Source: Candidatus Kaiserbacteria bacterium (GTDB lineage Bacteria; Patescibacteriota; Minisyncoccia; Phycocordibacterales; UBA918). Taken from it: a DNA stretch of 43,774 bases. The notes beneath the pieces were generated by a model. The model ran no database searches and had not been told where the DNA came from. It saw nothing but the letters and a program-made list of their open reading frames with translations. Positions 620 through 38,179 of the stretch are shown one piece after another; positions within the stretch are counted from its first letter, which is position 1, and every line of letters starts with the position of its first letter. The position numbers and the translations under genes are program-made. The stretch covers positions 1 through 43,774 of the forward strand of contig JAHQWD010000001.1 in assembly GCA_019634005.1 (NCBI GenBank), written 5' to 3'.

Positions 620-914
620 ATGAATTAAGCTCTATGAAATCAGAATGGATTGGTGTTGTTCGGTCAAACCCGAGTCCCTCTACCAGTAGGTTTACAACCC
701 CCCACAGAATAACAATCAAGACGAAGGCAGCAATACTATAGAATGCAGACCGCCGAGCTTTCTCTCGGCCTTCTTTTGTCGCACCTTGCGCGATGAAGTA
801 TTGAAAGGTATTCCAGAGGAAAAATAAAAAAGCGATTGCAAGTATAAGCGGAACGAGCAGATCGTTTACAAAGACAATAAAATCAACGAGTAGAGACGAA
901 ATAGTTGTGGTCAT
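618..914 (-). CDS. VirB2/TrbC-like (T4SS-pilin family) membrane protein, 98 aa
   Basis: Two hydrophobic segments (LLVPLILAIAFLFFLW; AFYSIAAFVLIVILWGVVNLL) linked by a G..EGREKARR loop, the pattern of CPR pilins. Start moved from 1055 to ATG 914 because TAGAAT sits 7 nt upstream. Confidence 0.7.
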   Translation of the reverse strand: MTTTISSLLVDFIVFVNDLLVPLILAIAFLFFLWNTFQYFIAQGATKEGREKARRSAFYSIAAFVLIVILWGVVNLLVEGLGFDRTTPIHSDFIELNS

Positions 915-963
915 ATAAGACATTCTACCGCATCTGGACAAATATAGGGAGATATTGTGTACA

Positions 964-991
964 TTGACAATAGATTTGGTTGTGATATAAT
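964..991 (+). promoter_or_regulatory. Consensus sigma70 promoter with extended -10
   Basis: TTGACA (964-969), 16-nt spacer, TATAAT (986-991) preceded by TG-n. Confidence 0.85.
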
Positions 992-1046
992 TAAGAACAG
1001 TTAAGAGTTGTTGGGAGTTCAAACCCGTAAGAGGGGGAAGAATCCA

Positions 1047-1163
1047 ATGAATCATAAAAAGGTAGCCGCACTGCTATCAGAGAGCAGTATGCAAGTAATC
1101 AAATTTGCGGGAGGATGTCTCTTAGTGATTGTCATTTTCAATATGGCATATCACGCAATCTGA
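1047..1163 (+). CDS. Small hydrophobic protein, 38 aa (below the ORF track cutoff)
   Basis: Hand translation MNHKKVAALLSESSMQVIKFAGGCLLVIVIFNMAYHAI*. It lies between a consensus promoter and a terminator and has one TM-length segment. Confidence 0.6.
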   Translation: MNHKKVAALLSESSMQVIKFAGGCLLVIVIFNMAYHAI

Positions 1164-1182
1164 AACCGAGACTATCGTCCTC

Positions 1183-1224
1183 AAAACAAAGCGCCAGACC
1201 CTTCGGGTCGGCGCTGTTTTCTTT
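1183..1224. terminator. Intrinsic terminator
   Basis: AGCGCC-A-GACC-CTTCG-GGTC-GGCGCT stem followed by GTTTTCTTT, with an A-rich tract on the left. Confidence 0.8.
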
Positions 1225-1281
1225 AGTTGTCTTTACCCCCTATATTTGATAGTATCTTGAGACTTATATAGTGCTTTCTGT

Positions 1282-1355
1282 CCGCGCTTAGCTCAGTTGG
1301 CTAGAGCATTCGACTGATACTCGAAAGGTCCTAGGTTCAAATCCTAGAGCGCGGA
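1282..1355 (+). tRNA. tRNA-Ile (anticodon GAT), CCA not encoded
   Basis: Cloverleaf: acceptor CCGCGCT/AGCGCGG, D-arm GCTC/GAGC, anticodon stem TTCGA/TCGAA with loop CT-GAT-AC (1314-1320), T-arm CTAGG-TTCAAAT-CCTAG, discriminator A1355. Confidence 0.95.
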
Positions 1356-1368
1356 CAGAGGGTGGTAG

Positions 1369-1570: not shown

Positions 1571-1631
1571 TACTTAAAGTATAGCAGACAGCGACTGGTG
1601 TTTTTGGGAGTTTCTCGTATGATACGTGTAT

Positions 1632-2957
1632 ATGTTAGAGCGGTGGAAAAAAGAATTTGAAGGGAGACGGGTGACGGTCATGGGACTGGGACTTTTAGGG
1701 CGTGGAGTTGGAGATGCACAGTTCTTGGCTGAGGCTGGTGCTGAGGTGCTCGTAACGGATCTAAAAACCAGAGAAGAACTACAAGAGTCTGTTGAAAGAC
1801 TTTCCCAATATCCAAATGTAACTTTTATACTTGGAGAACATCGCATGGAAGATTTTGAGAATAGAGATTTTATATTGAAGGCAGCGGGTGTGCCAAAAGA
1901 TTCTCCGTATATAGCACACGCGAGAGAGAGAAATATCCCCATTGAGATGAGTGCGTCTCTTTTTGTACGTCTTGCGGGTATTCCGATTATTGGTGTGACG
2001 GGAACAAGGGGGAAGTCGACTGTAACCCATATGGTTCACCACGTGCTTTCGCAGATGACTGAAGGAGGCTCCGTGCTTCTGGGTGGGAATGTGCGTGGTG
2101 TCTCTACACTGGCGCTTTTGAATGAAGTAAAGGAAGAATCGCTTGCTGTCCTTGAATTGGATTCTTGGCAACTACAAGGATGCGGTGAAGCAAAAATAAG
2201 TCCACAGATTGCTGTCTTCACAAACTTTATGGCAGACCATCTCAACTATTACAAAGGAGATATGGACGCATATTTTGAAGATAAAGCGCAAATCTTTCTC
2301 TATCAAGAAGAGGGGGATGTGCTGGTGACTACGCCAGAAGTATTTGAACGTATACAAGGGTTTGTAAAAGACCAGTTGGAACAACAGGTGTTGCTCACTG
2401 ATACCTCAGTACTACCCGAAGACGCACTGCTTTCTATGCCTGGAGAGCACAATCGTCTCAATGCCGCACTTGCGTATCAGGCGTTAAAGGCAACCAGTCT
2501 TTCTGACGAAGAGATCTTTGAGGGTCTTGCGTCATTTCCAGGGGTGCCAGGACGGCTGCAGTTCCTTCGAGAAATTGATGGTGTCAGAATCTATAATGAC
2601 AACAATGCAACGACACCCGCAGCAACGCTCGCTGCGCTTCGCGCGTTAGGGGAGGGTAAAAACATCATACTTGTCATGGGAGGTGCTGATAAAGATGTGC
2701 CGAGGGAGGAACTTGTAGCGGAGATTGATACGTACGCAAAGCGTGTGTTATTTATCCCAGGAACAGGAACAGATCTTATTTCCAAAGAAATTGAAGGGGT
2801 GCACGCACAAAATCTCAAAGATGCTCTGTCTCAGGCGCGGGAGGTTGCGCAGGAGGGAGATGTTATTCTCTTCAGTCCAGGGTTTGCCTCTTTTGGGGCG
2901 TATGCGAATGAGTACGAGCGCGGGGATGAGTTTGTATCGTTAGTGAATAGTCTATGA
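1632..2957 (+). CDS. murD: UDP-N-acetylmuramoyl-L-alanine--D-glutamate ligase
   Basis: N-terminal GLGLLGRG, P-loop GVTGTRGKST, ELDSWQL, YNDNNATT, GGADK, FSPGFASF..YERG motifs. Start at ATG 1632 (TATGAT 8 nt upstream) rather than GTG 1626. Confidence 0.95.
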   Translation: MLERWKKEFEGRRVTVMGLGLLGRGVGDAQFLAEAGAEVLVTDLKTREELQESVERLSQYPNVTFILGEHRMEDFENRDFILKAAGVPKDSPYIAHARERNIPIEMSASLFVRLAGIPIIGVTGTRGKSTVTHMVHHVLSQMTEGGSVLLGGNVRGVSTLALLNEVKEESLAVLELDSWQLQGCGEAKISPQIAVFTNFMADHLNYYKGDMDAYFEDKAQIFLYQEEGDVLVTTPEVFERIQGFVKDQLEQQVLLTDTSVLPEDALLSMPGEHNRLNAALAYQALKATSLSDEEIFEGLASFPGVPGRLQFLREIDGVRIYNDNNATTPAATLAALRALGEGKNIILVMGGADKDVPREELVAEIDTYAKRVLFIPGTGTDLISKEIEGVHAQNLKDALSQAREVAQEGDVILFSPGFASFGAYANEYERGDEFVSLVNSL

Positions 2958-4890: not shown

Positions 4891-4906
4891 GGTATACTAG
4901 AGGCAT

Positions 4907-5149
4907 ATGTCACGAGAATCATTAGTATTTGTCATTGGAATTGTACTCTTTTTGATACCTTTTTTGGGAGTACCGCAGGATGTAAAGGATATTGTTATTG
5001 TAGGAATGGGCATTATCGTCATAGTGCTTGGTATAGTGCTTCGCCGCGCAGCTTTCCTCCGTTCTATCGAGAACGGTAATGGTGAAAAAGAAGGAGAGAT
5101 GTTTACTGAATCAAAGATTCCAGAAGAGACTAAAGAGACAAGGATATGA
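4907..5149 (+). CDS. Hypothetical two-TM membrane protein
   Basis: 80 aa with two N-terminal hydrophobic helices and an acidic tail. TATACT lies 8 nt upstream and the stop overlaps the next start. Confidence 0.75.
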   Translation: MSRESLVFVIGIVLFLIPFLGVPQDVKDIVIVGMGIIVIVLGIVLRRAAFLRSIENGNGEKEGEMFTESKIPEETKETRI

Positions 5150-6583: not shown

Positions 6584-6610
6584 ATATAAAGTGTCTGCTA
6601 TAATTCACCT

Positions 6611-8296
6611 ATGAGTTTTGATCCTGATAAGATCACGTACTTTGCGAAAACTGATGCTCGTGGTCAGCAGAAGCCTTTTGGTATCAAAGCAAAGGATAGA
6701 CAGCGTCATGTCTACGTCATTGGTAAGACAGGAATGGGTAAGTCTACCTTGCTTGAGAATATGGCGGTGCAAGATATAAAGAACGGGGAAGGACTCGCTT
6801 TTATTGACCCTCATGGTTCTACCGCAGAAACACTTCTTGATTTCATTCCAGAAGAACGCGTAAAGGACGTATTATATTTCGCTCCATTTGATATGGAACA
6901 TCCAATATCCTTCAATATTATGGAGGATGTAGGGCCAGACAAACGACACCTCGTTGTATCTGGACTGATGTCTGTGTTTGAGAAAATCTGGGTGGATGCA
7001 TGGTCTGCACGTATGGCATACATTCTCCAGAATACGCTTATGGCACTTCTGGAGTATCCAGACTCTACGCTTCTTGGGGTAAACCGTATGCTCTCAGATA
7101 AAAAATATCGAGAGAAGGTGGTAGACAATGTCAAAGATCCTGGCGTGAAGTCTTTCTGGGTAGACGAGTTTGCAAAATACAATGAGCGATACATGCAAGA
7201 AGCAGGAGACGCGATTAAGAACAAGATCGGACAGTTTACCGCCAATCCAGTGATTCGAAATATTATTGGACAACCACACTCCAGTTTTGATATCCGTGAC
7301 ATCATGGACAACAAAAAGATCCTTATTATGAATCTCTCAAAGGGCCTGATTGGAGAGACGAATGCGAACCTTCTGGGGTCGATGCTCACCACACGTATCT
7401 ACCTTGCTGCAATGAGTCGTGCAGACCTTTCACCGCAGGAAATGAAAGAGATGCCAAACTTCTATTTCTATGTAGACGAGTTCCAGTCGTTTGCGAACTC
7501 TACATTTGCCAACATTCTCTCTGAGGCGCGTAAGTATAAGTTGAACCTCACTATCGCACATCAATATGTGGAGCAAATGGAAGAAGAGGTGCGGAATGCA
7601 GTATTTGGAAACGTAGGAACGGTCATTGCATTCCGTGTTGGTCCATTTGATGCAGAAGTATTGGAGGCAATCTTTGCGCCAGAGTTTACCGCAACGGACC
7701 TGGTGAATCTGGGGTTTGCACAAATATACCTCACGCTTATGATCGACGGTATTGGGTCACGTCCATTTTCTGCGGTAACTCTACCTCCAATTGAGGCGGG
7801 GCATACGTCATGCAAAGAGATGGTTATTCGATCGAGTCAAAAGAACTTTGGTTCTGAACGTACACAGGTTGAAGAGATGGTTAATGCGTTCCACGAACAG
7901 AATCGTACACCACCAAAGCCGCCAAAAGAAAAGAAAAGGCCAACACGGAAGCCAGAAGGAGGATTCCAGCCACCACTTCGGAAGAAGGAAGAAAAGGATG
8001 TCAATGATCTTCGTAATGTGTTGAAGATCATCACAAAGACGCCTGGCGGTGGACAGCAAAAGAAAGAAGCCCCAAAGCCACCAGCAAAAAAAACAGAAGA
8101 TCTGAAAGCGGCACTTGCGGGGGTGATGAAGGAGGCCCCAAAGCCTGAGCAGAAACACACTCCGCCTGCACAAAAACAGAAGGTGCCCCGACAGCAAAAG
8201 AAGCCAATACCAAAACAGAAAGAAGAGTCTGTGTCAGCAAAGAATCTTGAACGCATGATGCGAGTGACCACACAGGATAAGCCACCGATGACATAG
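6611..8296 (+). CDS. VirD4/TraD-like type IV coupling-protein family ATPase
   Basis: RHVYVIGKTGMGKS (Walker A), FIDPHG, FYFYVDEFQSF (Walker B), ILSEARKYKLNLTIAHQY, AVFGNVGT motifs, plus a low-complexity C-terminal tail. Confidence 0.85.
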   Translation: MSFDPDKITYFAKTDARGQQKPFGIKAKDRQRHVYVIGKTGMGKSTLLENMAVQDIKNGEGLAFIDPHGSTAETLLDFIPEERVKDVLYFAPFDMEHPISFNIMEDVGPDKRHLVVSGLMSVFEKIWVDAWSARMAYILQNTLMALLEYPDSTLLGVNRMLSDKKYREKVVDNVKDPGVKSFWVDEFAKYNERYMQEAGDAIKNKIGQFTANPVIRNIIGQPHSSFDIRDIMDNKKILIMNLSKGLIGETNANLLGSMLTTRIYLAAMSRADLSPQEMKEMPNFYFYVDEFQSFANSTFANILSEARKYKLNLTIAHQYVEQMEEEVRNAVFGNVGTVIAFRVGPFDAEVLEAIFAPEFTATDLVNLGFAQIYLTLMIDGIGSRPFSAVTLPPIEAGHTSCKEMVIRSSQKNFGSERTQVEEMVNAFHEQNRTPPKPPKEKKRPTRKPEGGFQPPLRKKEEKDVNDLRNVLKIITKTPGGGQQKKEAPKPPAKKTEDLKAALAGVMKEAPKPEQKHTPPAQKQKVPRQQKKPIPKQKEESVSAKNLERMMRVTTQDKPPMT

Positions 8297-8299
8297 CCT

Positions 8300-9298
8300 A
8301 TGCGACTGGTGGTGCTCTATGTTCTTTTGTGTGTTCCATCCGTGCTCTCTGCAGAAACGTTGGTTAATATCAACACCGCGTCAGCAGAAGAACTGGAGAC
8401 ACTTCCAGGTATCGGGAGTGCCTATGCAACACGTATCATTGAGTACAGGTCCGATGCACCGTTTCAGACTATTGAAGACATACAAAATGTAAGCGGGATA
8501 GGACCTGCAACATTTGCAAAAATTGAAGACCACATTACTGTCGATGGTGAGAAAGAGTCCGACACAAAAGAGACGACGACACCTTCAAAGAGTGTCCGTG
8601 TAAAAGAGACATACAATGAGGAGATAGTCGTTGATGCACCAGCGGTAACCTTCGTACATCAAGAGGTGTCATTTGATGTGTCTACGCATATGAGTGGCAG
8701 ACTTGTTCGGTATGCATGGAACTTTGGAGACCTATCATCTGGTGAAGGAAGGGCTCCCACACACCGTTTTGAGTACCCAGGAGAATATGTGGTAATTGTG
8801 GAAGGGAGGTATCAAGGAGAAGATTTCTCGGCACGCCATGAGATAGTGGTCCTTCCAGTTGCGTTTTCTATCACGCGTTCTCCTGAGGGAGACATACAGA
8901 TACACAATGATGCGTCGGAGGAAGTGGACATAAGTCACTTTATTCTCTCAGAGGTAGATGCAGTCGTTATTCCCAAGGGGACGACACTACTTCCGCACGC
9001 GACACTGACTGTTCCAAGAGAGAAGGTTGAAACGGGAGGAACCTATGGTATACCGAGACTCTATGATGCTATTGGAACACTGGTGGCAACATATGATCCT
9101 CAGTACGTTGCTCCAGAAAGCGATATAGTTCCTGTTGATGTTGAGAGCCAGCAAGCCTCAGCCATTGAGGCGGTTGAGGAGTCGGGAAGTAATCTTGCGT
9201 ACATAGGCCTTGCATCGGTGCTTGCCATAGGCATTCTCGGTGTCTATACCAGGCGAAGAGAATCCCCATATATTGAAGATATAGAGAAAAGCGTATAG
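8300..9298 (+). CDS. ComEA-like helix-hairpin-helix DNA-binding protein with PKD domain and C-terminal membrane anchor
   Basis: Signal peptide; VNINTASAEELETLPGIG and IQNVSGIGP HhH motifs; PKD signature YAWNFGD...THRFEYPGEY; C-terminal TM followed by RRR. Confidence 0.85.
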   Translation: MRLVVLYVLLCVPSVLSAETLVNINTASAEELETLPGIGSAYATRIIEYRSDAPFQTIEDIQNVSGIGPATFAKIEDHITVDGEKESDTKETTTPSKSVRVKETYNEEIVVDAPAVTFVHQEVSFDVSTHMSGRLVRYAWNFGDLSSGEGRAPTHRFEYPGEYVVIVEGRYQGEDFSARHEIVVLPVAFSITRSPEGDIQIHNDASEEVDISHFILSEVDAVVIPKGTTLLPHATLTVPREKVETGGTYGIPRLYDAIGTLVATYDPQYVAPESDIVPVDVESQQASAIEAVEESGSNLAYIGLASVLAIGILGVYTRRRESPYIEDIEKSV

Positions 9299-9308
9299 TA
9301 TGACTGCT

Positions 9309-10184
9309 ATGGATCAAAAACTCATAGTGGTGACAGGTGGAGCCGGATTTATCGGTTCCCATTTATGTGAGCGTCTCACCAAAGAAGGACATACGGTGAT
9401 TTCTCTTGATAACTATTTCACGGGGACAGAGAAGAATCACGTAGAGGGGGTAGAGTACAGAAAGGGACATACGAAAGATATCGAAAAGCATATTCCTGAG
9501 ACACCAGACTTGGTATATCACCTTGGAGAGTATCCTCGAGTGGCACCAAGTATCAATGAGCCAGAGAAAGTGTGGGATCTCAACATTGCAGGAACGTTGG
9601 GGGTCTTGGAATTTTGGCGTAAGAAAGGTGGCAAACTTGTCTATGCTGGATCGTCTACCAAGTTTGCAGATGATCGTGAGGATGGCGTGGAGGGGAAAAA
9701 TCGCTCACCATATTCTTGGGCAAAGGCAGCGAATAGTGAATTGGTCGCTAATTATGGGAATTGGTATGATCTTGAGTATTCCATCGCATACTTCTATAAC
9801 GTCTATGGTCCTCGAGAGCGTGCAGGACAGTATGACGGTTCTTATGGAACGATCATTGAGACATTCAGACAGTGTCATCTTGGTGACAAGGCCTGTACGA
9901 TAAACGGAACAGGGGAGCAGACACGAGCATTTACACATATAGATGATACTGTGGACGGACTTGTACTTATCGGACAAAAAGGTGGACGAGACGAGTACGG
10001 TATTGGTGCGAAGGAAGTATACTCTCTTCTCGATGTTGCAAAGATGTATGGGCTAGAGATAGAGTTTGCGCCAGCCACAAAGGTGACTCGTTCTTCAGGA
10101 TCTACCGACACGACCAAACTAGAGCTTCTTGGTTGGGAACAGAAACACACATTAGAAGAATATATTAACGAGTGTAAGAAGTAG
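9309..10184 (+). CDS. NAD-dependent epimerase/dehydratase (extended SDR)
   Basis: [18 protein letters not shown], catalytic YSWAK (YxxxK), [16 protein letters not shown] motifs. Start may be 9300 or 9309. Confidence 0.9.
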
Positions 10185-12982: not shown

Positions 12983-13485
12983 ACAAGTGATTCTAGATGT
13001 TTTTTCCAATCCTCCTCATACCGCTTGAATGCTTCAGCGGGGTATTCTTCAAAAGGGAGCACCTCGGGGCGAATAAGTGAGAGATTCGCGTATGAAATAT
13101 CTTTTGAAGAAGTCTGCTGCAGCGTACGGCCAAAAGAGGTGAGTGGAGCAGTGGTGTCAAATGGAAGAAAGACGTGTGGAATCCTTCGTAGTTTTGTTGC
13201 AAAGAATACAGGCACTTCCACCGAACGCCCATTTATTATATAGAGCATATCGTGTTTTCGCAGTTCCCGAAGGAGTGTTTTGAAAAAAGAGAAGAGACGC
13301 ATAACAATTGGTTTCCTCTTATCTACGCAGCAGGTTTCCACGTTCGAAAGTTCCTCGGGGAGATGGCCGTACAGTACAACGGTGACCTTGTGCTGGTCAC
13401 TAAGGCGTTTCGCAAGTTCCTTCACATATTGCGCTGTTTCTGCCGTATCTGGTGGATAGAGCGGGGTTACAATGAGTATTCGCAT
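12979..13485 (-). CDS. Glycosyltransferase GT4 N-terminal domain only, 168 aa
   Basis: MRILIVTPLYPPDTAETAQYVKELAKRL..HKVTVV resembles the N-terminus of the divergent GT at 13549; the C-terminal donor-binding domain is absent. Start at ATG 13485 with TG-C-TATACT 8 nt upstream. Confidence 0.65.
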   Translation of the reverse strand: MRILIVTPLYPPDTAETAQYVKELAKRLSDQHKVTVVLYGHLPEELSNVETCCVDKRKPIVMRLFSFFKTLLRELRKHDMLYIINGRSVEVPVFFATKLRRIPHVFLPFDTTAPLTSFGRTLQQTSSKDISYANLSLIRPEVLPFEEYPAEAFKRYEEDWKKHLESLV

Positions 13486-13548
13486 TGCTTTTGAGTATAG
13501 CACTTTGTAAGGCGGGTATACATATGAAGTTTCTGCTATCATAAACCA

Positions 13549-18975: not shown

Positions 18976-19043
18976 ACCCTACAATGTAGCACTTTTTATA
19001 CCTGTACGACTATATGTGGCTGTGCTACTGTGTTTATACGCCT

Positions 19044-20201: not shown

Positions 20202-20872
20202 GTATCTACGTAGAGTTTATGGGGTTATCAGGAGCGGGGAAGACAACGCTCGTTGATACGCTGTGTACACGTCTCAAAGAGCAAGATGTTTCTGTAGTGA
20301 GCAAAGACACCTTTTTTGTAAAGCCAAAGAGAGGACTTTCTAAATTGTGGTGGACAGTGACGCATCTTCACTATCTTGATAGAGAGACATTTCGTTCGCT
20401 ACTTATGCTTGGAAAGACACGCCGTCTTGGCTTTCGGAGACTACTTGCAAGTATTCATGAGCACACCAAATTGTGGCACCAACTTGCATATCGTTCGCAA
20501 TATAAAGTAATCCTCTGGGACGGTATTTTTATTCAGCGATTTGTCCATCTTGTTCTCGATGGTGTGTTTGATGTTCAAAAGACATTCGACTTCATCGTTT
20601 CTAGACTTCCAAAGGAAACTCTGGTGGTGTACATAGATGTTCCATTAGATACGGCACTTGAACGAAGACATGAACGAGAACCACGTCTCGACAGTGTGTC
20701 TGAGGTGAAGAAAGAAAAGGAAATGAAGTTTCTCACAGAGACACAACAAGTACTCCAAGAGGCTTGTACAGAACTTGAAAAAAGAAATGTACAGGTTGTG
20801 CGAATTGATGGCACCAAAACACCAGAAGAGAATGCGGATATACTGGTTAATGAAATCACTGAACGCCTATGA
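20198..20872 (+). CDS. P-loop nucleoside-monophosphate/thymidylate-kinase-like protein
   Basis: VEFMGLSGAGKTT Walker A, ILWDG, VVYIDVPLDTALERR..RE lid, RIDGTKTPEE C-terminal motif. Confidence 0.75.
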   Translation: MSIYVEFMGLSGAGKTTLVDTLCTRLKEQDVSVVSKDTFFVKPKRGLSKLWWTVTHLHYLDRETFRSLLMLGKTRRLGFRRLLASIHEHTKLWHQLAYRSQYKVILWDGIFIQRFVHLVLDGVFDVQKTFDFIVSRLPKETLVVYIDVPLDTALERRHEREPRLDSVSEVKKEKEMKFLTETQQVLQEACTELEKRNVQVVRIDGTKTPEENADILVNEITERL

Positions 20873-23744: not shown

Positions 23745-23745
23745 T

Positions 23746-24846: not shown

Positions 24847-25460
24847 CACGACCGTGGGACACATTTTTTAAAGAACGCATAACACGAATCCTTAAAGAAA
24901 AGGAAACGGTTATTGATATTGGAGGAGGTCTTCGTGTCGCAAAGGATAAAAACAACCGATATGACAAAAAGAGAGCATGGGCACTGCCGCTTCTTGAGGG
25001 CGTAGATTATAAAGTGCTCGATCCTGTCCCAGACTATAACCCTGATATTGTCGGAGACATCCACAACCTTCCGTTTGAGGACGATTCTGTAGATGCGCTC
25101 CTCTGTATCGCCGTACTAGAGCATGTTGAGAATCCAATACAGGCAGCGAAAGAGATGTACCGTGTCTTAAAACCGGGGGGATATCTCTTTGTCTATGTAC
25201 CATTCTTATACTACTACCACGCGGAAAAGGGATACTATGGAGATTATTGGCGCTTCACGAAGGACACACTCGACGTGCTCTTTAGAGATTTTTCCGAGAA
25301 GGAGATAGTTTCTGTACGTGGCGCACTTGAGACATGGGTGAAGCTGGGTCCTCTCGGACGAAGTGCATTTATATGTGGTCTTGCTCATATGCTGGACAAG
25401 CTCACAGGCAAGATACAGAGTGCACAGACAAGCGGGTATAATGTCTTCTTGGTGAAATAG
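24843..25460 (+). CDS. Class I SAM-dependent methyltransferase
   Basis: VIDIGGG motif I, GDIHNLPFEDDSVD, VLEHV, RVLKPGG, DYWRFT motifs. Confidence 0.9.
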   Translation: MTRPWDTFFKERITRILKEKETVIDIGGGLRVAKDKNNRYDKKRAWALPLLEGVDYKVLDPVPDYNPDIVGDIHNLPFEDDSVDALLCIAVLEHVENPIQAAKEMYRVLKPGGYLFVYVPFLYYYHAEKGYYGDYWRFTKDTLDVLFRDFSEKEIVSVRGALETWVKLGPLGRSAFICGLAHMLDKLTGKIQSAQTSGYNVFLVK

Positions 25461-25461
25461 T

Positions 25462-26346
25462 ATGCAGAAAGAACTCCTTACAAAATTTCAAGAAGCAGAA
25501 CGACGCGCACAGTCGTGGTATGAATTTTCTGGTACGCTTGGTGCAAAACTACGCCGCATCCTTTTCTTGAAAGGAAAATACCTTGTTTTTACACTGTATC
25601 GACTTGGACTTAAAAAAGAAGGCACCGCAAAGTTGTTTTTTGGAAAGCATATGCGTCTCCCGCTTAGAGACCCGAATGCACTCCGCATGTATTTCATGGG
25701 CACGCTCGGTGCGCCGCGGGAACGTGCCCTCACTGCCTTTTTGATCCGAACTCTTAAAAAAGATGACGTCTTTTATGACATCGGTGCAAACTTTGGTTTC
25801 TATGCGTTCCTTGCGGAAACATTGGCGGGGGAAGTACACGCCTTTGAGCCAAACGAGCGTATTTACGCGTATCTAAAGAAGAATGCGGCAAAAAATATTG
25901 AGACAATACAAATGGCAGTGAGTAACGAGGTGGGTATGGTGACCTTCTTTGATTCCATAGAGGACAGTAGTTCAAGTAGTCTCATTCAGTCAGAAGATAG
26001 GGAAGCGGAAGAATATGCATCAAACGAAGTAAAAGCAACCACCCTCGACACCTACACCAAAGACCACACCCCACCAACCATCCTCAAGATAGACGTGGAA
26101 GGCGCAGAACGTCTCGTACTGGAAGGAGGAAAAGAAACCCTCACTACACACAAACCAACCATCATTCTTGAAGTCTGGGGGAAAGAACGAGGGAAGAAAC
26201 ACCACAAAGAAGCAGTCTCTCTCCTTCACACCATGGGATACGTACCGCACCACATTACCGAAGACGGAACGTTGGAGCGGTTGGGAGAGGTGGATTTTGA
26301 TGGAATTACTCGGTACGAGAATATTGTGTTTACACGGCCCTCTTAA
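25462..26346 (+). CDS. FkbM-family methyltransferase
   Basis: FYDIGANFGFY, VHAFEPN, TTLD, LKIDVEGAE motifs. Confidence 0.92.
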   Translation: MQKELLTKFQEAERRAQSWYEFSGTLGAKLRRILFLKGKYLVFTLYRLGLKKEGTAKLFFGKHMRLPLRDPNALRMYFMGTLGAPRERALTAFLIRTLKKDDVFYDIGANFGFYAFLAETLAGEVHAFEPNERIYAYLKKNAAKNIETIQMAVSNEVGMVTFFDSIEDSSSSSLIQSEDREAEEYASNEVKATTLDTYTKDHTPPTILKIDVEGAERLVLEGGKETLTTHKPTIILEVWGKERGKKHHKEAVSLLHTMGYVPHHITEDGTLERLGEVDFDGITRYENIVFTRPS

Positions 26347-27568
26347 AGAGCATTAGCGTCAGTACGGCATTGAATACGTACACACAGAAGATTGCTCCAA
26401 CAATACCCCAGATTCCATAGAGTGGGAGGAGAACTGTGATGAGAACGATGCGTGCAAGTGGTGTCGCTGTACGAAGGATGTATAGCTGTCGCTTCTTAAG
26501 ATGTGCAGTCAGTGCTTGCGGGAGTATGGAAATTGGAATAAAAAGAAGGGTGACGGCAAGTGTCTGTGAGAAATGTATAGAATCTAAATATTGCGGGAAG
26601 ATGTACTGGTAGATATATGGTGCTGCAAGTATATATGCTCCAACGAACGGTAGAAGAATAAGGAAGAGGAGAAGCATGCGCGGAGGAAGTGAATGCTTCA
26701 ATTCTGCAAGTGAACGATTACTTAATTTCGGGAAAGCAGGCGTTAAGAAGAAACTTTTCAATTTACGAAGCTCGCGTATGGGGGCAATTGCGAGTGCATA
26801 GATCGCGAGTTGTGCTGCACCAAGATAGTGAAAGAGGAGAATCTTATCAATGTTGCTCGCAAGGATTTCAAGAATGTTCATGACACTCAGATGTCTGCTA
26901 AATGCAAGTGTGTCTGGTTTTTCGGTATTAATATGTTCTTTATGTCTCGCGATGAAATAGGAAATGACCACAACAAGTGCTTGAGACACAAAATAGACTG
27001 CGATGAGAACGATCGGATTCTGTGTATAGAAGACCGTACCAATTAAGAAGAGGGGAGGAAGAAGTAGGCGGGGAAGAGAGTAAAAGGTCTCTCGTTTAAA
27101 ATCTTTACGACCCTTGAGAAGCGGAGAGTAGAGATCAAAACTATATATAAGTGGAAGTGTTGCAGCGATAATAAGGAGACTAGTACCAAGAACGGTATTT
27201 TCATTCAAGAAATAATATCCTGCTCCGCCGAGAGAGAGAAGTATCATCCCGACACTCCACCGCAAGTTTTCACGAAGTCCTTCTGAGACGGCACCTTCAA
27301 ATCCTTTGGCAACTGCCTGCATGACCGCAGTACTCATACCAGTCAGAGAAAATGCGGCGATGATGCTCGCAAGTGAGAGAACAAACTTATACACTCCAAA
27401 TTCTTCAGGTGCCAGAAGATTAGCGAGCGCGATCGAAAGGCTAATGCCTACGATGATGCCGAGGATTCGTTTGATACTTACCCAAAAACCTCCTTTTGCA
27501 AGGTAGACCATATCTGTCTTGGTATATTTCTCACTCCACCGAAGTAATCGGACTGCTCGCTCTTTCAT
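26330..27568 (-). CDS. Wzx-type polysaccharide flippase (MOP superfamily)
   Basis: Multi-TM protein with LANLLAPEEFGVY, NIDKILL..LG..QLAIY, LLPLYGIWG patterns. Start at MKER (27568) with TACTAT 7 nt upstream. Confidence 0.85.
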   Translation of the reverse strand: MKERAVRLLRWSEKYTKTDMVYLAKGGFWVSIKRILGIIVGISLSIALANLLAPEEFGVYKFVLSLASIIAAFSLTGMSTAVMQAVAKGFEGAVSEGLRENLRWSVGMILLSLGGAGYYFLNENTVLGTSLLIIAATLPLIYSFDLYSPLLKGRKDFKRETFYSLPRLLLPPLFLIGTVFYTQNPIVLIAVYFVSQALVVVISYFIARHKEHINTEKPDTLAFSRHLSVMNILEILASNIDKILLFHYLGAAQLAIYALAIAPIRELRKLKSFFLTPAFPKLSNRSLAELKHSLPPRMLLLFLILLPFVGAYILAAPYIYQYIFPQYLDSIHFSQTLAVTLLFIPISILPQALTAHLKKRQLYILRTATPLARIVLITVLLPLYGIWGIVGAIFCVYVFNAVLTLMLFKRAV

Positions 27569-27621
27569 GTATCCTATAGTACTAAAGAATAAGTAGTTTT
27601 GGTACGGTATAATGCACCGTA

Positions 27622-29004
27622 ATGGCAAAGGAACTAGACCCAACCAAACGCGCGGCAGAGGATCTCACTGAAGCGGTGGAGGAGACACTTACAGGGAGTG
27701 AAGACATTGCGATTATTGACCCGAAGTTGAAAGAGAAGTCTGCTGAGAGAGAGGCCGTGCGTGAGGCTTCAAAGCCAAAAGAGGAAAAAGTGCGTGCTGC
27801 CGATATGGAGCGTACGGCATCTCCAATTGTAAAACGAACATCGAGTCGTAACGATGCACGGCTTCTCATTATCACCCGTGATACGGGGGTGTTTACGGAG
27901 AACTCTCAATCCATCATTCATATAGCACAGTACGCGCAGATGTTCGCGGAGGTGCATGTTATTGTGTTGACCACTAGAAAAGAAGACGCGGTATATCAGA
28001 CCACGCGTGTGGGGGATGATATATACCTCTATCCCACAAACTCTCGTTGGTGGTGGAAGACGATTGGAGATGCAAAGAAAGTTGCAAAGAAACAGTTAGT
28101 CTTTGGTGAGAGTTTCCGACCAGATCTTATTATTGCCGAAGATCCGTTTGAGTCTGGCATGGCAGGAAAAGCAATCGCACGAGCATATAATCGACCACTT
28201 GAAGTGCGTGTCACGGAAAACTTCCTTGACAATGGATTTGTCGACCTTGCACCGCATAATCGGTGGCGGAGATTTATGGCACACATAGTGCTTCCCAAAG
28301 CGGTTTGTGTGCGCACAGGCTCTGAATATCTCAAGGATCTTATTACTGCAGAGTTTAAGGCAGTGAAGGATCGGATTGAAGTACTTCCTATATTCTATGA
28401 TATCGAGTCGTGGAAAACTGCTCCGCAAACCATTAACCTGAAAGAGAAGTTTCCACAGTTTAAATTGATTCTCTTGCACGTGTCTGCGATGAATGAACGC
28501 TCTCATACGGAGAGTGTTATTGATGGGCTCTACTATATTCTTAGACAGTACAAAAGTCTTGGACTAGTTATTATTGGCGAGGGTCCGAAACGTGCGGCTA
28601 TTGAAGAGCGTGTTGCAGAATATGGATTGAGCACGCAGGTAGTATTTGCCTCAAAGAGTGTGGATGTGCTCTCAAGTATGCACTCGTCAGACATGCTCAT
28701 ACACGCTTCTTCTGACCCCATCAACGATGAGGTGGTGCTCAAGGGGGCTACCGTGGGCATTCCTATGATCTGCGGGAATGTCGGTATTGCAGCTGAAGTG
28801 TTTAAAAATGAAGAGTCGGTGTTATTGTGTCCCTTGGACAGCCCACCGTGTTTTGGAGAGAAGGTAAACAGGCTGTTGAACAACAATGCGCTTCGTGAGA
28901 CATTGGAAATGAACGCTCGGACCGTCGTTGCGGAAAATATCGTACAGGATTATACGCAATATCTTCGTGTGTACCGCCAGAGCATAGAGCGCTGTTTGGT
29001 GTAG
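27622..29004 (+). CDS. Divergent GT4-like protein lacking the canonical ExxxxxxxE motif
   Basis: Shares YPTNS and DPFE with GT 14667 and has IIGEGP. The catalytic segment reads ASSDPINDEVVLKGATVGIP. It carries a ~70-aa charged N-terminal extension. Confidence 0.75.
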   Translation: MAKELDPTKRAAEDLTEAVEETLTGSEDIAIIDPKLKEKSAEREAVREASKPKEEKVRAADMERTASPIVKRTSSRNDARLLIITRDTGVFTENSQSIIHIAQYAQMFAEVHVIVLTTRKEDAVYQTTRVGDDIYLYPTNSRWWWKTIGDAKKVAKKQLVFGESFRPDLIIAEDPFESGMAGKAIARAYNRPLEVRVTENFLDNGFVDLAPHNRWRRFMAHIVLPKAVCVRTGSEYLKDLITAEFKAVKDRIEVLPIFYDIESWKTAPQTINLKEKFPQFKLILLHVSAMNERSHTESVIDGLYYILRQYKSLGLVIIGEGPKRAAIEERVAEYGLSTQVVFASKSVDVLSSMHSSDMLIHASSDPINDEVVLKGATVGIPMICGNVGIAAEVFKNEESVLLCPLDSPPCFGEKVNRLLNNNALRETLEMNARTVVAENIVQDYTQYLRVYRQSIERCLV

Positions 29005-29016
29005 AATAACTGGTAT

Positions 29017-30948
29017 ATGAAAGACCTCTCAAAATGGATTACCTACGCAGGAGTATTTGTACTCCCGTTTTTGGTACTTATTGTCGCAGACTCTCTCTTT
29101 TTCCCATATATCACGGGGAAGGGGTTCTTCTTTAGAATCGTTGTTGAAATCATAACCGCCGCATGGATTGTCTACGCGCTCTATGAGTCGCGCGTGCGCC
29201 CGAAGGTGTCATACATAGCATGGGGCTTTATTGCGCTTGTGGTCATTATGTTTTTTGCGGATCTCTTCGGACAGTACGCGCCGAAGAGTTTCTGGAGTAA
29301 TTTCGAGCGAATGGACGGCTATGTCACACTCGTGCATCTCTTCCTCTATTTTGTGGTTGTCAGCAGTGTTCTCACAACAGAGAAACTATGGTACCGATTC
29401 CTCACAATCTCTGTTGGAGTAGCATCAACACTGGCATTGTATTCTTTTGCTCAGCTTTCTGGTGAGATAGAGATTAATCAAGGTGGGTGGCGTCTGGATG
29501 GAACACTTGGGAATGCAGCATACATGGCCGTATACCAACTGTTCCATATAGCATTTGCACTCTTGTTATTCTTTAGGACACATACTAAGTGGTTGCGGTA
29601 TCTTTACGGAGGGTTGGCCGTAGTATTTACGTTCTTGCTGGTGCAGACAGCGACTCGGGGAACCATCCTTGGATTAGCAGGAGGGATACTGCTCGCCGTA
29701 CTCTACGCACTCGTTAGGGAACAAAAATATCGAAAGGTTGCAGGAGGGATTCTCTTGGGGTGGGTGATACTGGTTGCTGGATTTATCGTGTTTAAAGATG
29801 CTTCGGTTATTCAAGAGAACCAATATCTCTCTCGGGTTGCAAACATCACCCTCGACGAAGGAAGTGTCCGCTTTGCATTGTGGGATATTGCGCTTGAAGG
29901 GGTGAAGGACAGGCCACTCCTTGGATGGGGACAGGAAAACTTTAATTACGTCTTTAACACGTATTACACCGCAGAGATTTACAATGCGGAGCAGTGGTAT
30001 GACCGAGTGCATAACATTGTCTTCGACTGGCTGATCGCAGGAGGAATCCTTGGAGCACTCGCATATTTCTCTCTTCTCTTCTTCACACTGTACTATCTGT
30101 TTCGACAGAGAGACATGTTTACGCTTCCAGAACAGAGTATTCTCTTCGGTCTTCTCGGAGCCTATATGTTCCATAACCTCTTTGTATTTGATAATACGGT
30201 TAGTTACTTCCTCTACATATCAGTCATTGCGCTGGTGCATAGTCGTGTTGGGAAGCCAGTATGGCAAGAGATAAGCGTATCGCGAGAGGTCACAGGACGT
30301 GTCATTGCGCCTGCGCTACTCATCGTTACTGCTCTTGTAGTTTACAGTGTCAATGTGCCACCGATGAAGGCAGGGGCGGCGCTTATTGATTCTTTCTCAG
30401 CATCATCGAGTGAGAAACATAGAGCGATTTTTACGGAAGCACTTTCATATGAGACATTTGGAAACCAAGAGATTCGTGAACAGATGATTCAAGTATTTCC
30501 GTCAATCTACCAGTCACAGAGTATCTCCGCTGAGGAAAAAAGAGCATTTGCACTTTTCATTGATGAAGAGATTAAAAATCAGGTTATGGAGAAACCGAGT
30601 GATGCTCGTGTGCATGCACTTGCGGCACCATTCTACAGAATAACGCGTGTACCAGATCAGGCACTCCAACATCTTGCAATCGCTATAGAACTTTCACCTG
30701 AGAAACAGCAATTCTATATCGATGCAGGGCTTGCGTATCTGCAAAAAGACAATCTTGCTGAGGCACTTGCTGTAGCGAAACATGCGTATGAACTAGAGTC
30801 TAAAAATAAGACCGCTCGTTTGTATTATGGGCTGATGTTGATTCTCTCAGGAGATCGGGAGGGGTATAGAGAGATCTCCGAGGGGTATGAGGAAGTTTTT
30901 GATGAACACACTTTCATCAAAGATGCCTTGGCGACGCAGGGCTGGTAG
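29017..30948 (+). CDS. O-antigen ligase / O-oligosaccharyltransferase-like membrane protein with C-terminal TPRs
   Basis: Many TM helices, TLGN, TATRG, RPLLGWGQENF, DRVHNIVFDWL..GGILG (Wzy_C HN motif), and a helical TPR-like tail. Confidence 0.88.
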   Translation: MKDLSKWITYAGVFVLPFLVLIVADSLFFPYITGKGFFFRIVVEIITAAWIVYALYESRVRPKVSYIAWGFIALVVIMFFADLFGQYAPKSFWSNFERMDGYVTLVHLFLYFVVVSSVLTTEKLWYRFLTISVGVASTLALYSFAQLSGEIEINQGGWRLDGTLGNAAYMAVYQLFHIAFALLLFFRTHTKWLRYLYGGLAVVFTFLLVQTATRGTILGLAGGILLAVLYALVREQKYRKVAGGILLGWVILVAGFIVFKDASVIQENQYLSRVANITLDEGSVRFALWDIALEGVKDRPLLGWGQENFNYVFNTYYTAEIYNAEQWYDRVHNIVFDWLIAGGILGALAYFSLLFFTLYYLFRQRDMFTLPEQSILFGLLGAYMFHNLFVFDNTVSYFLYISVIALVHSRVGKPVWQEISVSREVTGRVIAPALLIVTALVVYSVNVPPMKAGAALIDSFSASSSEKHRAIFTEALSYETFGNQEIREQMIQVFPSIYQSQSISAEEKRAFALFIDEEIKNQVMEKPSDARVHALAAPFYRITRVPDQALQHLAIAIELSPEKQQFYIDAGLAYLQKDNLAEALAVAKHAYELESKNKTARLYYGLMLILSGDREGYREISEGYEEVFDEHTFIKDALATQGW

Positions 30949-35204: not shown

Positions 35205-35223
35205 GAGAGGGTACAATATACGT

Positions 35224-35562
35224 ATGACACATATTATTGCACGCGTGCTTTTGACCGCACTCACACTACTTGTTATCGAACGCTTCATTGACGGAATTAC
35301 CGTTGAGGGACTGTATTACGCAATTATCGCAGCAATTGTTATTGGGCTTTTAAATCTTGTTGTTCGACCAGTCCTCTTTGTATTATCGCTGCCAATCACT
35401 ATCTTGACCCTCGGCCTCTTCACCTTTGTGATCAATGCGCTTATCTTTTGGTTCGCTGCGTCATTCGTTGAAGGGTTCTATGTCTCAGGGTTTATGACCG
35501 CATTTGTTGGATCTCTTATCGTGACATTTGTCAGTACTATTGGAAGCAAGTTTTTGGAATAG
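35224..35562 (+). CDS. 4-TM 'phage holin' family membrane protein (YvlD-like)
   Basis: GLLNLVVRPVL..LSLPITILTLGLFTFVINA signature. Start at ATG 35224 with TACAAT 6 nt upstream. Confidence 0.85.
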   Translation: MTHIIARVLLTALTLLVIERFIDGITVEGLYYAIIAAIVIGLLNLVVRPVLFVLSLPITILTLGLFTFVINALIFWFAASFVEGFYVSGFMTAFVGSLIVTFVSTIGSKFLE

Positions 35563-35611
35563 TCGGGAGACCCTCTTTACTTTTCTTCCGTAATTCTTTA
35601 CGCTACACGCA

Positions 35612-36598
35612 ATGTTTGTCGATGAACTAATCATACATGGTATAGCAGGAAAAGGAGGCGACGGAGTCGTGCGCTGGCTTCGTATGCCACATCGTCCCAT
35701 GGGAGGTCCTGCTGGTGGGGATGGAGGTAACGGTGGCGACGTTTATATACGCGCTGTACGTGATTTAGGGCTTCTTTCAAGGTATACAGGTGATAATGTA
35801 TTCCGTGCTGGGAACGGTGAAAATGGCCATGGAAAGAGCCAAGAAGGCAAAAATGGAGAGGATATGTATATTGATTTGCCTGTAGGGTCCACTGTTACCG
35901 ATAAGAAAGGTGGACATGTGTACGTTCTCGAGGAGGCTGGGCAAGTGCATAAGATCCTCTTGGGTGGTCGTGGTGGTTACGGAAATGAACACTTTAAATC
36001 TGCAACAAATCAGAGTCCAGAACAATCTACTCGTGGAAAGAAGGGGGAAGAAGGAGAGTTCCTTGTAGAACTTTCATTGCTTGTTGATGTCGGTTTTATT
36101 GGGTTCCCAAATGCAGGTAAATCTACACTTCTCAATACGTTTACCAATGCAACTGCTGCTGTTGGTGCCTATCCGTTTACAACACTGGAACCTCACCTCG
36201 GGGAACTTTTTGGTTTTATCCTCGCCGATATTCCAGGGTTAATTGAAGGGGCGTCTGAAGGCAAGGGTCTTGGGCATAAGTTCCTTCGTCATGTACGACG
36301 CACGAAGATGCTTCTACACCTCATCTCACTCGAGAATGAAGATGTCGTGGATGCATACACAAAGATTCAGAATGAACTTCGTAACTTTGATATAGACCTC
36401 CTCGAAAAGGAGCAGTGGGTGGTACTCACAAAGTCTGATCTCGTCTCTGAGGAAGAAGTATCCTCCTCCAGGACTACTCTAGAAAACATTGTTAGTACAA
36501 AAGTCTTTGTGATTTCAGCTGAGACAGGGGAGGGGGTTAAGTTTTTACAGGATGAACTTACCACTCACCTCCGCAAAACCTCAAAAAAGGTAGGTTAA
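35612..36598 (+). CDS. obgE: GTPase ObgE/CgtA
   Basis: MFVDE, GGPAGGDGGNGGDV glycine-rich Obg fold, GFPNAGKSTLL, YPFTTLEP, ADIPGLIEGASEGKGLG, TKSD motifs. Confidence 0.96.
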   Translation: MFVDELIIHGIAGKGGDGVVRWLRMPHRPMGGPAGGDGGNGGDVYIRAVRDLGLLSRYTGDNVFRAGNGENGHGKSQEGKNGEDMYIDLPVGSTVTDKKGGHVYVLEEAGQVHKILLGGRGGYGNEHFKSATNQSPEQSTRGKKGEEGEFLVELSLLVDVGFIGFPNAGKSTLLNTFTNATAAVGAYPFTTLEPHLGELFGFILADIPGLIEGASEGKGLGHKFLRHVRRTKMLLHLISLENEDVVDAYTKIQNELRNFDIDLLEKEQWVVLTKSDLVSEEEVSSSRTTLENIVSTKVFVISAETGEGVKFLQDELTTHLRKTSKKVG

Positions 36599-36602
36599 AA
36601 CC

Positions 36603-36719
36603 ACACGAAACACAGTTTTGTCAATAAATAAAATACCCTTATAAATAAGGGTATTTTATTTATAAGGCTGTATTTTTTATTAAAATAGAAATACTCTTTG
36701 ACAAAATTGTGTTTCGTGT
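36603..36719. repeat. 117-bp nested inverted-repeat element (MITE-like)
   Basis: 22-bp terminal inverted repeats (36603-36624 and 36698-36719, 21/22 complementary) enclosing a perfect 19-bp-arm palindrome (36624-36642 / 36645-36663). Confidence 0.75.
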
Positions 36720-36766
36720 CAAAAAAACTTGCTGGAGAGGGCCTGGAAGAGTACTATTAGCAGGTT

Positions 36767-38179
36767 ATGTATACAGCAACTATTGGTCTGGAAGTTCATG
36801 CAGAACTTAAAACAAAGTCAAAAATGTTCTGTGGATCTAAAAACGATCCACACCATGGAGAACCAAACACTCATATTTGCCCTGTTTGTGTTGCGCACCC
36901 AGGAACCTTACCAGTTATTAATAAGGAAGCAGTCAAACATGTTCTTAAAGTAGGTGTTGCACTCGAAGGTAACATTGCTACTTTTACAGAATTTGATAGA
37001 AAGAATTATTTCTATCCTGATATTCCAAAAGGTTACCAAATTAGTCAGTATAAGTATCCTCTCGTAAGTGGAGGGACTCTTGCTGGAGTTGCTATCACTA
37101 GAGTTCATCTTGAAGAAGACACTGCTCGCTCTCTTCATGATCAAGGGAAGGGTAGTCTTGTGGACTACAATCGGGCAGGTGTACCTCTGATGGAATTGGT
37201 GACAGAGCCTGTCATCCATGACGCTGAAACAGCTGGGCGATTTGGCCGAGAGTTGCAACTTCTTTTGCGGACACTCAATGTCTCAGATGCAAATCTTGAA
37301 AAGGGGGAGATGCGTGTGGAGGTAAATATTTCTATTAGTAAGAACGACACACTTGGGACAAAAGTTGAGGTAAAAAATCTCAACTCTTTCCGTGCTGTCG
37401 AGAATGCAATTGCTTATGAAATTGATCGACAAAGTAAGCTTTTGGACTCTGGGGAGAGCGTTCTACAGGAGACAAGAGGTTGGGATGAGCAGAAAAGCCT
37501 TACTTTTAGCCAGAGACTGAAGGAGACCTCTGAAGAATACCGCTATTTCCCTGATCCTGATCTACCAAAATTAGATATTTCCAGCGTGCCAGAGTTCTCA
37601 CTATCTCGGATAAAAGAGGAGCTCCCAGAATTACCTGAAGAAAAACGCTTAAAATATAGGAATCTCGGAATACCGAGAGAACAGATTGAATTACTAATCT
37701 CGGATAAAATCCTAATGCCATTTTTTAACGAGATTGTTGAATCGGAACCTCTAAAAGAAGACGCACTTAAGCGTGCTGCTAACTATCTTACTTCTGATGT
37801 TCTATCTCTATGTGCAAATGGTGCTCGAGATCTCAAAATTGACGCGGTTGGAGTATTTGTTGAGCTTATGGAGATGCTTAGTGAAGGAGAGATCACTTCT
37901 CGTGTAGCCAAGGATATACTTCCTGAAGTCGTATTTAACGGCCAATCTCCTAGAGAAATTGCTACAGAGCGAGGACTTCTGCAAGAGAATGATTCTGATG
38001 CACTTAAGGAGATTGTTGGGAAGATACTAGTAGACCATCCAGATGTTGTTTCTGAATATAAGGCTGGTAAGGAACAAGTTCTCAAGTTCTTGGTTGGTCA
38101 AGGAATGAAAGCAACAAAAGGTTCAGCGAATCCTTCTGTTCTTGAGGAGGCCTTCAAGAAGGAAATAGGTGTTCTTTAG
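36767..38179 (+). CDS. gatB: Asp/Glu-tRNA amidotransferase subunit B
   Basis: IGLEVHAEL, FDRKNYFYPD.PKGYQISQY, HLEEDTA, DYNRAGVPLMELVTEP, EVKNLNSF, YRYFPDPDL, and a C-terminal Yqey domain. Confidence 0.97.
   Translation: MYTATIGLEVHAELKTKSKMFCGSKNDPHHGEPNTHICPVCVAHPGTLPVINKEAVKHVLKVGVALEGNIATFTEFDRKNYFYPDIPKGYQISQYKYPLVSGGTLAGVAITRVHLEEDTARSLHDQGKGSLVDYNRAGVPLMELVTEPVIHDAETAGRFGRELQLLLRTLNVSDANLEKGEMRVEVNISISKNDTLGTKVEVKNLNSFRAVENAIAYEIDRQSKLLDSGESVLQETRGWDEQKSLTFSQRLKETSEEYRYFPDPDLPKLDISSVPEFSLSRIKEELPELPEEKRLKYRNLGIPREQIELLISDKILMPFFNEIVESEPLKEDALKRAANYLTSDVLSLCANGARDLKIDAVGVFVELMEMLSEGEITSRVAKDILPEVVFNGQSPREIATERGLLQENDSDALKEIVGKILVDHPDVVSEYKAGKEQVLKFLVGQGMKATKGSANPSVLEEAFKKEIGVL

Follow-up and report, generated by a model that had tools for sequence, protein, structure and literature searches.

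Bacterial genomes rich in leaderless genes have been described as 'group C' of the GeneMarkS-2 classification (bioRxiv 10.1101/193490) and through the 'TA-led' genes of Zheng et al. 2011 (PMC3160421), with examples in Mycobacterium tuberculosis (PMC4633059, PMC3898074), Deinococcus deserti (PMC4007540) and Deinococcus-Thermus (PMC12340547). Initiation independent of the Shine-Dalgarno (SD) sequence, with 'Kozak-like' A-rich starts, has been reported for Bacteroidia, including Flavobacterium johnsoniae (PMC6847099, PMC10798248), and termination-reinitiation coupling is known from gene pairs that overlap or lie very close together (Huber et al. 2019, PMC6728339; PMC10666635). Tsurumaki et al. 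2022 (RNA 28:1041; PMC9297842) revealed a subgroup of Parcubacteria without the anti-SD motif and without the ribosomal protein uL1. No paper linking 'leaderless' with the Candidate Phyla Radiation (CPR), Patescibacteria or Parcubacteria was found in a literature search. Here, we describe the layout of promoters and start codons in a genome of Candidatus Kaiserbacteria bacterium (GCA_019634005.1), which belongs to the Patescibacteria, class Paceibacteria ('Parcubacteria', Kaiserbacteria-type). The assembly comprises 638 kb in three contigs and is 98.5% complete (G000); the window, i.e., the whole stretch of 43,774 nt that was analysed, corresponds to its contig C1 (JAHQWD010000001.1).

This genome is devoid of an anti-SD sequence, and its genes appear to start translation through three SD-independent routes, a reading to which we assign a probability of about 0.8. 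On the leaderless route, which would serve about 40% of the genes, an RNA polymerase of the sigma-70 type would recognise the extended -10 element TGnTAyAmT and hardly any or no -35 element, transcription would begin 6-9 nt past this box, either at the A of ATG itself or 1-3 nt ahead of it, and the 5'-terminal AUG would be bound directly by a ribosome carrying the initiator tRNA. On the coupled route (about 20%), a terminating ribosome would re-initiate at ATGA, TAAnATG and similar junctions, the downstream gene starting at -8 to +5 nt from the stop of the upstream one. The remaining genes (about 35%) would depend on a promoter placed 16-40 nt upstream, giving a short leader without SD and with an accessible, A-rich and weakly folded start.

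The rRNA side of this reading comes from the 16S gene, which is single-copy and lies in two parts, one closing contig C2 and the other opening C1, so its 3' part (last 417 nt) occupies positions 1-417 of the forward strand of the window. In the Rfam SSU alignment, GGATTAATTCCAAT replaces GGATCACCTCCTTA in the tail at 404-417, so that no anti-SD CCUCC is left, the gene ending in GGAUUAAUUCCAAU rather than GGAUCACCUCCUUA. All same-family genomes read share this tail without change (GGATTAATTCCAATTGGA), whereas the bases directly behind it differ, and same-order tails vary (GGAAUAUUUCCAAC, GGAAUUCUUCCGAA, GGAAUAUUUCAAUU and similar), all of them without CCUCC. At the aligned tail, CCTCC was found in none of 30 same-family or same-order relatives; within 300 nt past the 16S end it was absent from the own gene and from most relatives, and its position was not conserved in the others. 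The tail can also form a small hairpin, UUCC-loop-GGAA, which changes in step to UUCA-loop-UGAA in same-order relatives. About 45-75 nt downstream of the tail, a second AATTGG box (GCTAATTGGTCGAT) is accompanied by a conserved hairpin with loop CTCAATTGAG and a covarying stem (window 395-520, loci L001-L030), and these trailer elements may constitute a 3' processing structure.

On the mRNA side, the SD words GGAG, GAGG, AGGA, GGAGG and AGGAG were essentially flat upstream of starts, and SD-like words were found at 5.6% of 5' start candidates versus 6.9% of internal ones. The SD-free initiation proposed in a preliminary description of this DNA is supported both by the lack of enrichment of SD motifs and by the single 16S gene without CCUCC. 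Pairing with the new 16S tail was rejected, as the words GGAA, GGAAT, TGGAA, GAATT, AATTAA, TTAATC and ATTAAT were also flat upstream of starts. The release factor 2 (RF2) gene prfB (C3:10473-11339) consists of a single uninterrupted frame of 318 aa with no SD-dependent +1 frameshift site, and has its own leaderless-type promoter, TGTTATACT, 8 nt before ATG. The uninterrupted frame is consistent with SD absence but not decisive; many bacteria lack the prfB frameshift. In addition, part of domain 1 seems to be missing from this RF2 (no match to profile positions 58-111). Regarding ribosomal proteins, profile PF00687 found no uL1 in this 98.5%-complete genome and matched in 14 of 14 control genomes. 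An S1-like protein is present in shortened form (395 aa; 168 bits vs. a cut-off of 577), as is a weak bS21-like hit (24.9 bits); bS1 or bS21 loss was discarded as a correlate, since both proteins are present in some form (bS21 weakly) and are thus uninformative.

A good AGGAG or GGAGG box does occur 7-9 nt upstream of the ATG in about 25-30 genes, as exemplified by those at C2:19996, 20628, 122529, 131215 and 133753 and at C3:74310, 94567, 330120 and 361685. Ten of these SD-led genes were examined, five of which had a Pfam match, all accessory (two RTX-repeat proteins, an S41 peptidase, an SPFH protein and a methyltransferase), and five had none. They tend to be GC-richer (mostly 0.50-0.56 vs. 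0.46 for the genome), similar genes occur in the sister genome G023, some starting with GTG, and they may represent recent imports from SD-using donors.

The evidence for the leaderless route lies in the position of a -10-like hexamer. Genes were predicted genome-wide by a simple open reading frame (ORF) caller based on codon usage, their starts being chosen in a motif-blind manner (longest ORF or first ATG), and a box was scored when TAnnnT started at -15 to -12 from the A of ATG, leaving 6-9 nt between the hexamer and ATG. Such a box preceded 228 of 596 first ATGs (38%). The check named beforehand, enrichment over shuffled controls, turned out positive, as dinucleotide-preserving shuffling of the upstream 60 nt yielded only 62 +/- 7.4 (10.4%; z=22). 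The rate was 5.8% at all ATG triplets and 4.0% at internal in-frame ATGs (p~1e-122). When only TA[CT]nnT hexamers were considered, i.e., without those beginning with a stop codon, the contrast became 29% vs. 3.4% (p~2e-107), indicating that the peak is not an artefact of in-frame stops near ORF starts. The TAnnnT peak was sharp at -15 to -12 with motif-blind starts. A position weight matrix (PWM) of the extended -10, set at a 2% false-positive rate per candidate, marked 268 of 602 genes, of which about 43 would be expected by chance, leaving about 225 after subtraction; the offsets -12, -13, -14 and -15 accounted for 83, 61, 57 and 67 genes, respectively. The PWM hit rate was 25% for ATG candidates and 2.7-3.1%, about the null level, for GTG and TTG. 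This exclusive use of ATG at leaderless-type sites matches direct binding of a 5'-AUG by a ribosome with initiator tRNA.

The logo aligned on the hexamer reads T-G-n-T-A-[T/C]-A-[A/C]-T, corresponding to an extended -10 (TGnTAyAmT), with the TGn extension found in 51% of the promoters. The -35 region of the same logo carried no information, and only a weak signal was detected there by counting, TTG at -35 spacing occurring in 15% vs. 7% in a control window. Conversely, when the genome was read from the motif side, 65% of its TGCTATAnT sites had an ATG 6-9 nt downstream. These boxes are spread well beyond the heads of operons: 61% of the genes that follow a co-directional gene at 12-40 nt have a box, in 45 cases a leaderless-type promoter extends into the 3' end of the ORF before it, and divergent leaderless pairs reach ATG-to-ATG distances down to 26-65 nt. 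In the preliminary description, first genes had been considered leaderless or nearly so. The promoter geometry agrees with that proposal, but its restriction to first genes does not stand, in view of the many boxes 12-40 nt behind a co-directional gene.

The same promoter was also found before RNA genes. The distance from the first base of the box to the mature 5' end is exactly 15 nt in 16 of 35 tRNAs, and the box starts within -12 to -18 in 25 of 35; the bases directly before the tRNAs follow Y-A-Y, with A at -2 in 24 of 35. Likewise, TGtgTATAAT stands directly before the RNase P RNA gene and shares one base, the first, with the Rfam match (C3:51540-51560). As these genes are untranslated, they provide the strongest argument: the box acts as a transcription signal that sets starts a few nucleotides past itself, and not as a ribosome-binding site. 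Together with the logo, this confirms the identity of the hexamer as a -10 box, which had already been put forward. The arrangement implies putative pre-tRNA leaders of about 2 nt, although an RNase P RNA is present. This tRNA promoter rule was not seen in nine tRNAs of the sister genus G023, and it is therefore not a family-wide trait. The hexamer is a genuine extended -10 promoter element, and transcription should begin at the ATG or no more than about 3 nt away from it.

Besides the leaderless-type genes, which comprise about 40% of the total and use ATG only, 123 further genes (about 20%) begin between -30 and +5 nt from an upstream co-directional stop, a range covering 152 of 466 same-strand pairs. 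The gaps between same-strand genes showed a peak at -4 (ATGA; 29 genes) and an unusual one at +1 to +3 (TAGTATG, TAATATG and similar; 78 genes), and few coupled internal genes (10-13%) had the box before them. This leaves 211 genes (35%) that belong to neither of the two classes. The preliminary description had stated that most other genes overlap or abut the upstream stop, which applies to the window (13 of 32 genes) but not genome-wide, owing to this last class. Here, -10 hits were spread over -16 to -40 at 3-6 times the background, from which these genes appear to have short SD-less leaders. The context of the start codon was similar in the three classes. U preceded the ATG in 59-69% of starts vs. 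32% of internal ATGs, G did so in 3-7% vs. 27%, the flanks were A-rich in all of them, and the mean folding energy of the start window was -3.3 to -4.2 kcal/mol vs. -6.8 at internal ATGs. Because the strong U(-1) signal is also present in the last class, its starts are probably mostly correct. Moreover, as the signal extends to coupled and leadered genes, it involves more than the Y(-1)R(+1) rule of transcription starts, and may arise from an extended pairing of the initiator tRNA with the start codon. Within the window, UAUG is exemplified by the starts at 2954, 8300, 10186 and 23746.

It should be considered whether the enrichment of the box could be a by-product of AT-rich intergenic DNA, of upstream stop codons or of the choice of starts. 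TAnnnT is common (17,490 genomic sites), TAnnnT-N6-9-ATG is globally as frequent as its reversed control (1330 vs. 1367), and two of the offsets, -12 and -15, keep the frame of the ORF. However, this explanation was tested and rejected, given that the position-specific peak survives dinucleotide shuffling and the removal of TAA/TAG-initial hexamers and is seen under both motif-blind rules; in addition, the more specific TGnTAnAnT-N6-9-ATG occurred 116 times vs. 23 in the reversed control. We thus regard it as extremely improbable. Alternatively, TAnnnT could act at the mRNA level, as a non-SD ribosome-binding site of the GeneMarkS-2 group B kind that pairs with the altered 16S tail, in which case the mRNAs would be leadered. 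The distance of the motif from the start codon resembles that of a ribosome-binding site, and the perfect conservation of the altered tail in the family suggests a function. Nevertheless, the consensus with its TGn extension is that of a sigma-70 extended -10, the motif is not complementary to the 16S end, tail-complementary words are not enriched, and the motif is rare before coupled internal genes while standing at a fixed short distance before untranslated tRNA and RNase P RNA genes, all of which renders this mechanism very unlikely.

A closer competitor accepts the promoters as real but supposes that most mRNAs carry leaders of 1-5 nt, with initiation requiring a few 5' nucleotides instead of being truly leaderless. 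The offsets are indeed spread from -12 to -15, and the rigid 9-nt spacing before tRNAs, with its conserved A at -2, suggests a start 8 nt past the hexamer, which would give leaders of 1-2 nt for boxes at -14 and -15; the preference for U at -1 across all gene classes points in the same direction. On the other hand, the commonest offset, -12, places the A of ATG at the seventh base, where transcription canonically starts, selection of this A as the start agrees with the Y(-1)R(+1) context around it, and mycobacteria and Deinococcus start exactly on the start codon with the same geometry (PMC3898074, PMC4007540). We consider such obligatory short leaders unlikely, yet they deserve more weight than the two preceding explanations.

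Some observations weigh against the three SD-independent routes. For boxes at -14 and -15, a transcription start at the canonical spacing of 7-8 nt would leave a leader of 1-3 nt, which for these boxes is as possible as none. With the sister genus G023, where median protein identity is 56%, a box was found at the equivalent ATG in only 28 of 83 leaderless-type orthologues; leaderless-type genes were no better conserved in this regard than the other classes, so that this comparison lends no support, and we read the low gene-by-gene conservation as promoter turnover. A conserved structured trailer follows the 16S gene, and the tail was read from the gene sequence. AGGAG at canonical spacing was found in 24 of the 211 genes that are neither leaderless-type nor coupled, compared with a background of 4.6%. 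The ORF caller missed some small genes, such as 13485(-), and the class percentages are therefore approximate. Finally, a search of sequencing runs with the window matched one DNA run ('plant metagenome') and no RNA run.

To place this layout in the phylum, 301 Patescibacteria genomes were surveyed with the ratio of TGNTANANT-N6-9-ATG to its reversed control, a coarse statistic. The ratio was 3.1-6.4 in the own order, mostly 4-6 in the class and about 1.2-1.6 in a few families, and it reached a median of 2.4 in the 160 genomes with a canonical ...CCTCC tail, 31% of which exceeded 3. The layout had been thought to match the altered 16S tail, and this match proved not to be specific, since the signature is also strong in many Patescibacteria that keep CCUCC. 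By these counts, the promoter-ATG layout is widespread in the phylum, being strongest, but not exclusive, where the anti-SD is gone. Given that the layout extends to CCUCC-keeping lineages, it is more likely, from this coarse statistic, that SD-independent starts came first and permitted the loss of the anti-SD. The lack of a CCTCC hit was rejected as a phylum-wide proxy for anti-SD loss, as family f39 had no hit and yet used SD in 29-58% of the sampled genes; the anti-SD-less status was thus assigned only to the own order, where the tails were read directly. Samples of 40-60 kb from other genomes were noisy (the own genome gave 20%, not 38%) and were used for the SD contrast only. SD use was seen in the samples of G068, G078 and G302. 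Four genomes with a canonical CCUCC tail (G207, G276, G163 and G086; loci L034-L042 and L049-L050) displayed no SD enrichment, with 2-7% vs. 6-8% in control windows, and SD disuse may be wider than anti-SD loss in the phylum.

In the window itself, the gene content relates mainly to the cell envelope (MurD, MurC, MurB, glycosyltransferases, an epimerase, a Wzy-like protein and a flippase), besides SecA, Obg, GatB and type IV secretion-like proteins. The box was found on 15 of the 32 called genes, against 10.4% expected from shuffles (binomial p=2e-7). The preliminary description had placed TAnnnT 6-9 nt before ATG at 15 start codons and ATGA overlaps at eight others (2954, 4219, 14667, 15695, 20198, 20869, 21951 and 24843), and every one of the 15 boxes and eight overlaps is present. 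N-terminal Pfam matches confirm the starts of Obg (35612, MFVD), GatB (36767), the holin-like protein (35224) and MurC (2954), while ORFs 1570(-) and 13485(-) had no family match.

Starting from the left end of the window, TAGAAT (922-927) lies 7 nt before ATG 914 on the minus strand (912-927), where a type IV secretion system pilin-like protein of 98 aa begins. A tRNA-Ile gene (1282-1356) follows on the plus strand, with TATAGT at 1267-1272, 9 nt before the mature 5' end (1267-1356). At 1568-1583 on the minus strand, TGcTATACT (hexamer 1578-1583) stands 7 nt before ATG 1570 of a 57-aa ORF, the divergent partner of the murD-like gene at 1632, whose ATG is preceded at 8 nt by TATGAT (1618-1623; 1618-1634, plus strand). 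ATG 1632 heads a murD-murC-like operon in which the following genes are joined via the ATGA overlaps at 2954 and 4219. Next on the plus strand come TATACT (4893-4898), 8 nt before ATG 4907 (4893-4909) and with the upstream stop 16 nt away, and TGcTATAAT (hexamer 6599-6604), 6 nt before ATG 6611 of a VirD4/TrwB-like coupling protein (6596-6613). TATAGT (9294-9299) precedes by 9 nt the ATG 9309 of an NAD-dependent epimerase (9294-9311, plus strand); this site is ambiguous, as an alternative ATG at 9300 begins 1 nt past the upstream stop.

A divergent pair is located at 13483-13551, with TGcTATACT before ATG 13485(-) and TGcTATCAT before ATG 13549(+), the two ATGs being 63 nt apart. Two runs of tightly joined cistrons then extend over 14667-25465 on the plus strand, split by the minus-strand gene 17800-18975. 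The run behind the leaderless-type start 13549 has ATGA at 14667 and 15695 and an 8-nt overlap at 16707, and the run behind 19014 has ATGA at 20198, 20869, 21951 and 24843 and 1-nt gaps at 23746 and 25462. The intervening minus-strand gene, a glycosyltransferase, carries TGcTACATT (hexamer 18983-18988) 7 nt before its ATG 18975 (18973-18988). In a second divergent pair (27566-27624), with ATGs 53 nt apart, TACTAT precedes ATG 27568 of a polysaccharide flippase-like gene on the minus strand and TATAAT (27608-27613) precedes ATG 27622 of a glycosyltransferase on the plus strand. The TAG stop of this glycosyltransferase gene (27622-29004) corresponds to the first three bases of the next box, TAGAAT (29002-29007), placed 9 nt before ATG 29017 of a Wzy/O-antigen-ligase-like gene (29002-29019, plus strand). 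The last three sites are also on the plus strand: TACAAT (35212-35217), 6 nt before ATG 35224 of a holin-family membrane protein with a full-length Pfam match (35212-35226); TACGCT (35599-35604), 7 nt before ATG 35612 of the Obg GTPase (35599-35614), a weak box scoring under the PWM threshold; and TACTAT (36752-36757), 9 nt before ATG 36767 of GatB (36752-36769).

A broader proposal, which we put forward tentatively and at somewhat less than even odds, is that of a 'zero-leader' genome, in which mRNA-rRNA pairing has been given up altogether, the promoter has replaced the ribosome-binding site, and the trait is old. Ribosomes would then enter only at a 5'-terminal AUG, by re-initiation after a stop, or on short unstructured leaders marked by UAUG, and promoters would abut functional 5' ends also in the case of tRNAs (2-nt leaders) and RNase P RNA. 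The trait would be widespread in Patescibacteria and would have made the anti-SD dispensable before its loss, the residual AGGAG-led accessory genes marking recent imports from SD-using donors. For practical purposes, SD-based gene callers will put starts in the wrong place in such genomes, promoters, and hence transcription units, can be read directly from sequence, and CPR genes may have to be given redesigned 5' ends for heterologous expression. As a natural bacterial case of translation without mRNA-rRNA pairing, the three SD-independent routes also bear on ideas of ancestral leaderless initiation.

Among the described systems, group C genomes resemble this one in the Pribnow box 6-9 nt before the start codon (25-60% of genes there, about 40% here), in the little or no -35 and in the inferred transcription start on the start codon. 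However, group C genomes keep the anti-SD and their remaining genes are SD-led, whereas this genome has neither an anti-SD nor an enrichment of SD; mycobacteria and Deinococcus have leaderless GUG starts, whereas leaderless-type genes use only ATG here; and the tRNA genes of this genome share the promoter geometry. Coupled gene pairs described elsewhere show a similarly strong excess of -4 overlaps and very short co-directional gaps, but in this case gaps of +1 to +3 (78) outnumber -4 overlaps (29) and no SD lies inside the upstream gene, the proposed coupling being read from geometry. Bacteroidia likewise have mRNAs without SD and A-rich, weakly structured start regions, although their anti-SD is kept and sequestered on the 30S platform, whereas here the sequence itself has been replaced, leaderless-type genes form a large class, and no context signal is stronger than U at -1. 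The subgroup of Parcubacteria in PMC9297842 shares a 16S 3' end without CCUCCU, the lack of a detected uL1 gene and a very small genome, and the present genome fits this subgroup. That study covers the losses of rRNA motifs and ribosomal proteins and is silent on mRNA recognition, a gap that the present layout would fill by inference, with a concrete and testable answer: about 40% leaderless-type promoters, about 20% tightly coupled cistrons, and the rest short SD-less UAUG leaders. The mechanism of each part is known, from group C leaderless genes or from termination-reinitiation, and this genome is best filed as an SD-free variant of the leaderless-rich layout, distinguished by having nothing SD-like left on either the rRNA or the mRNA side.

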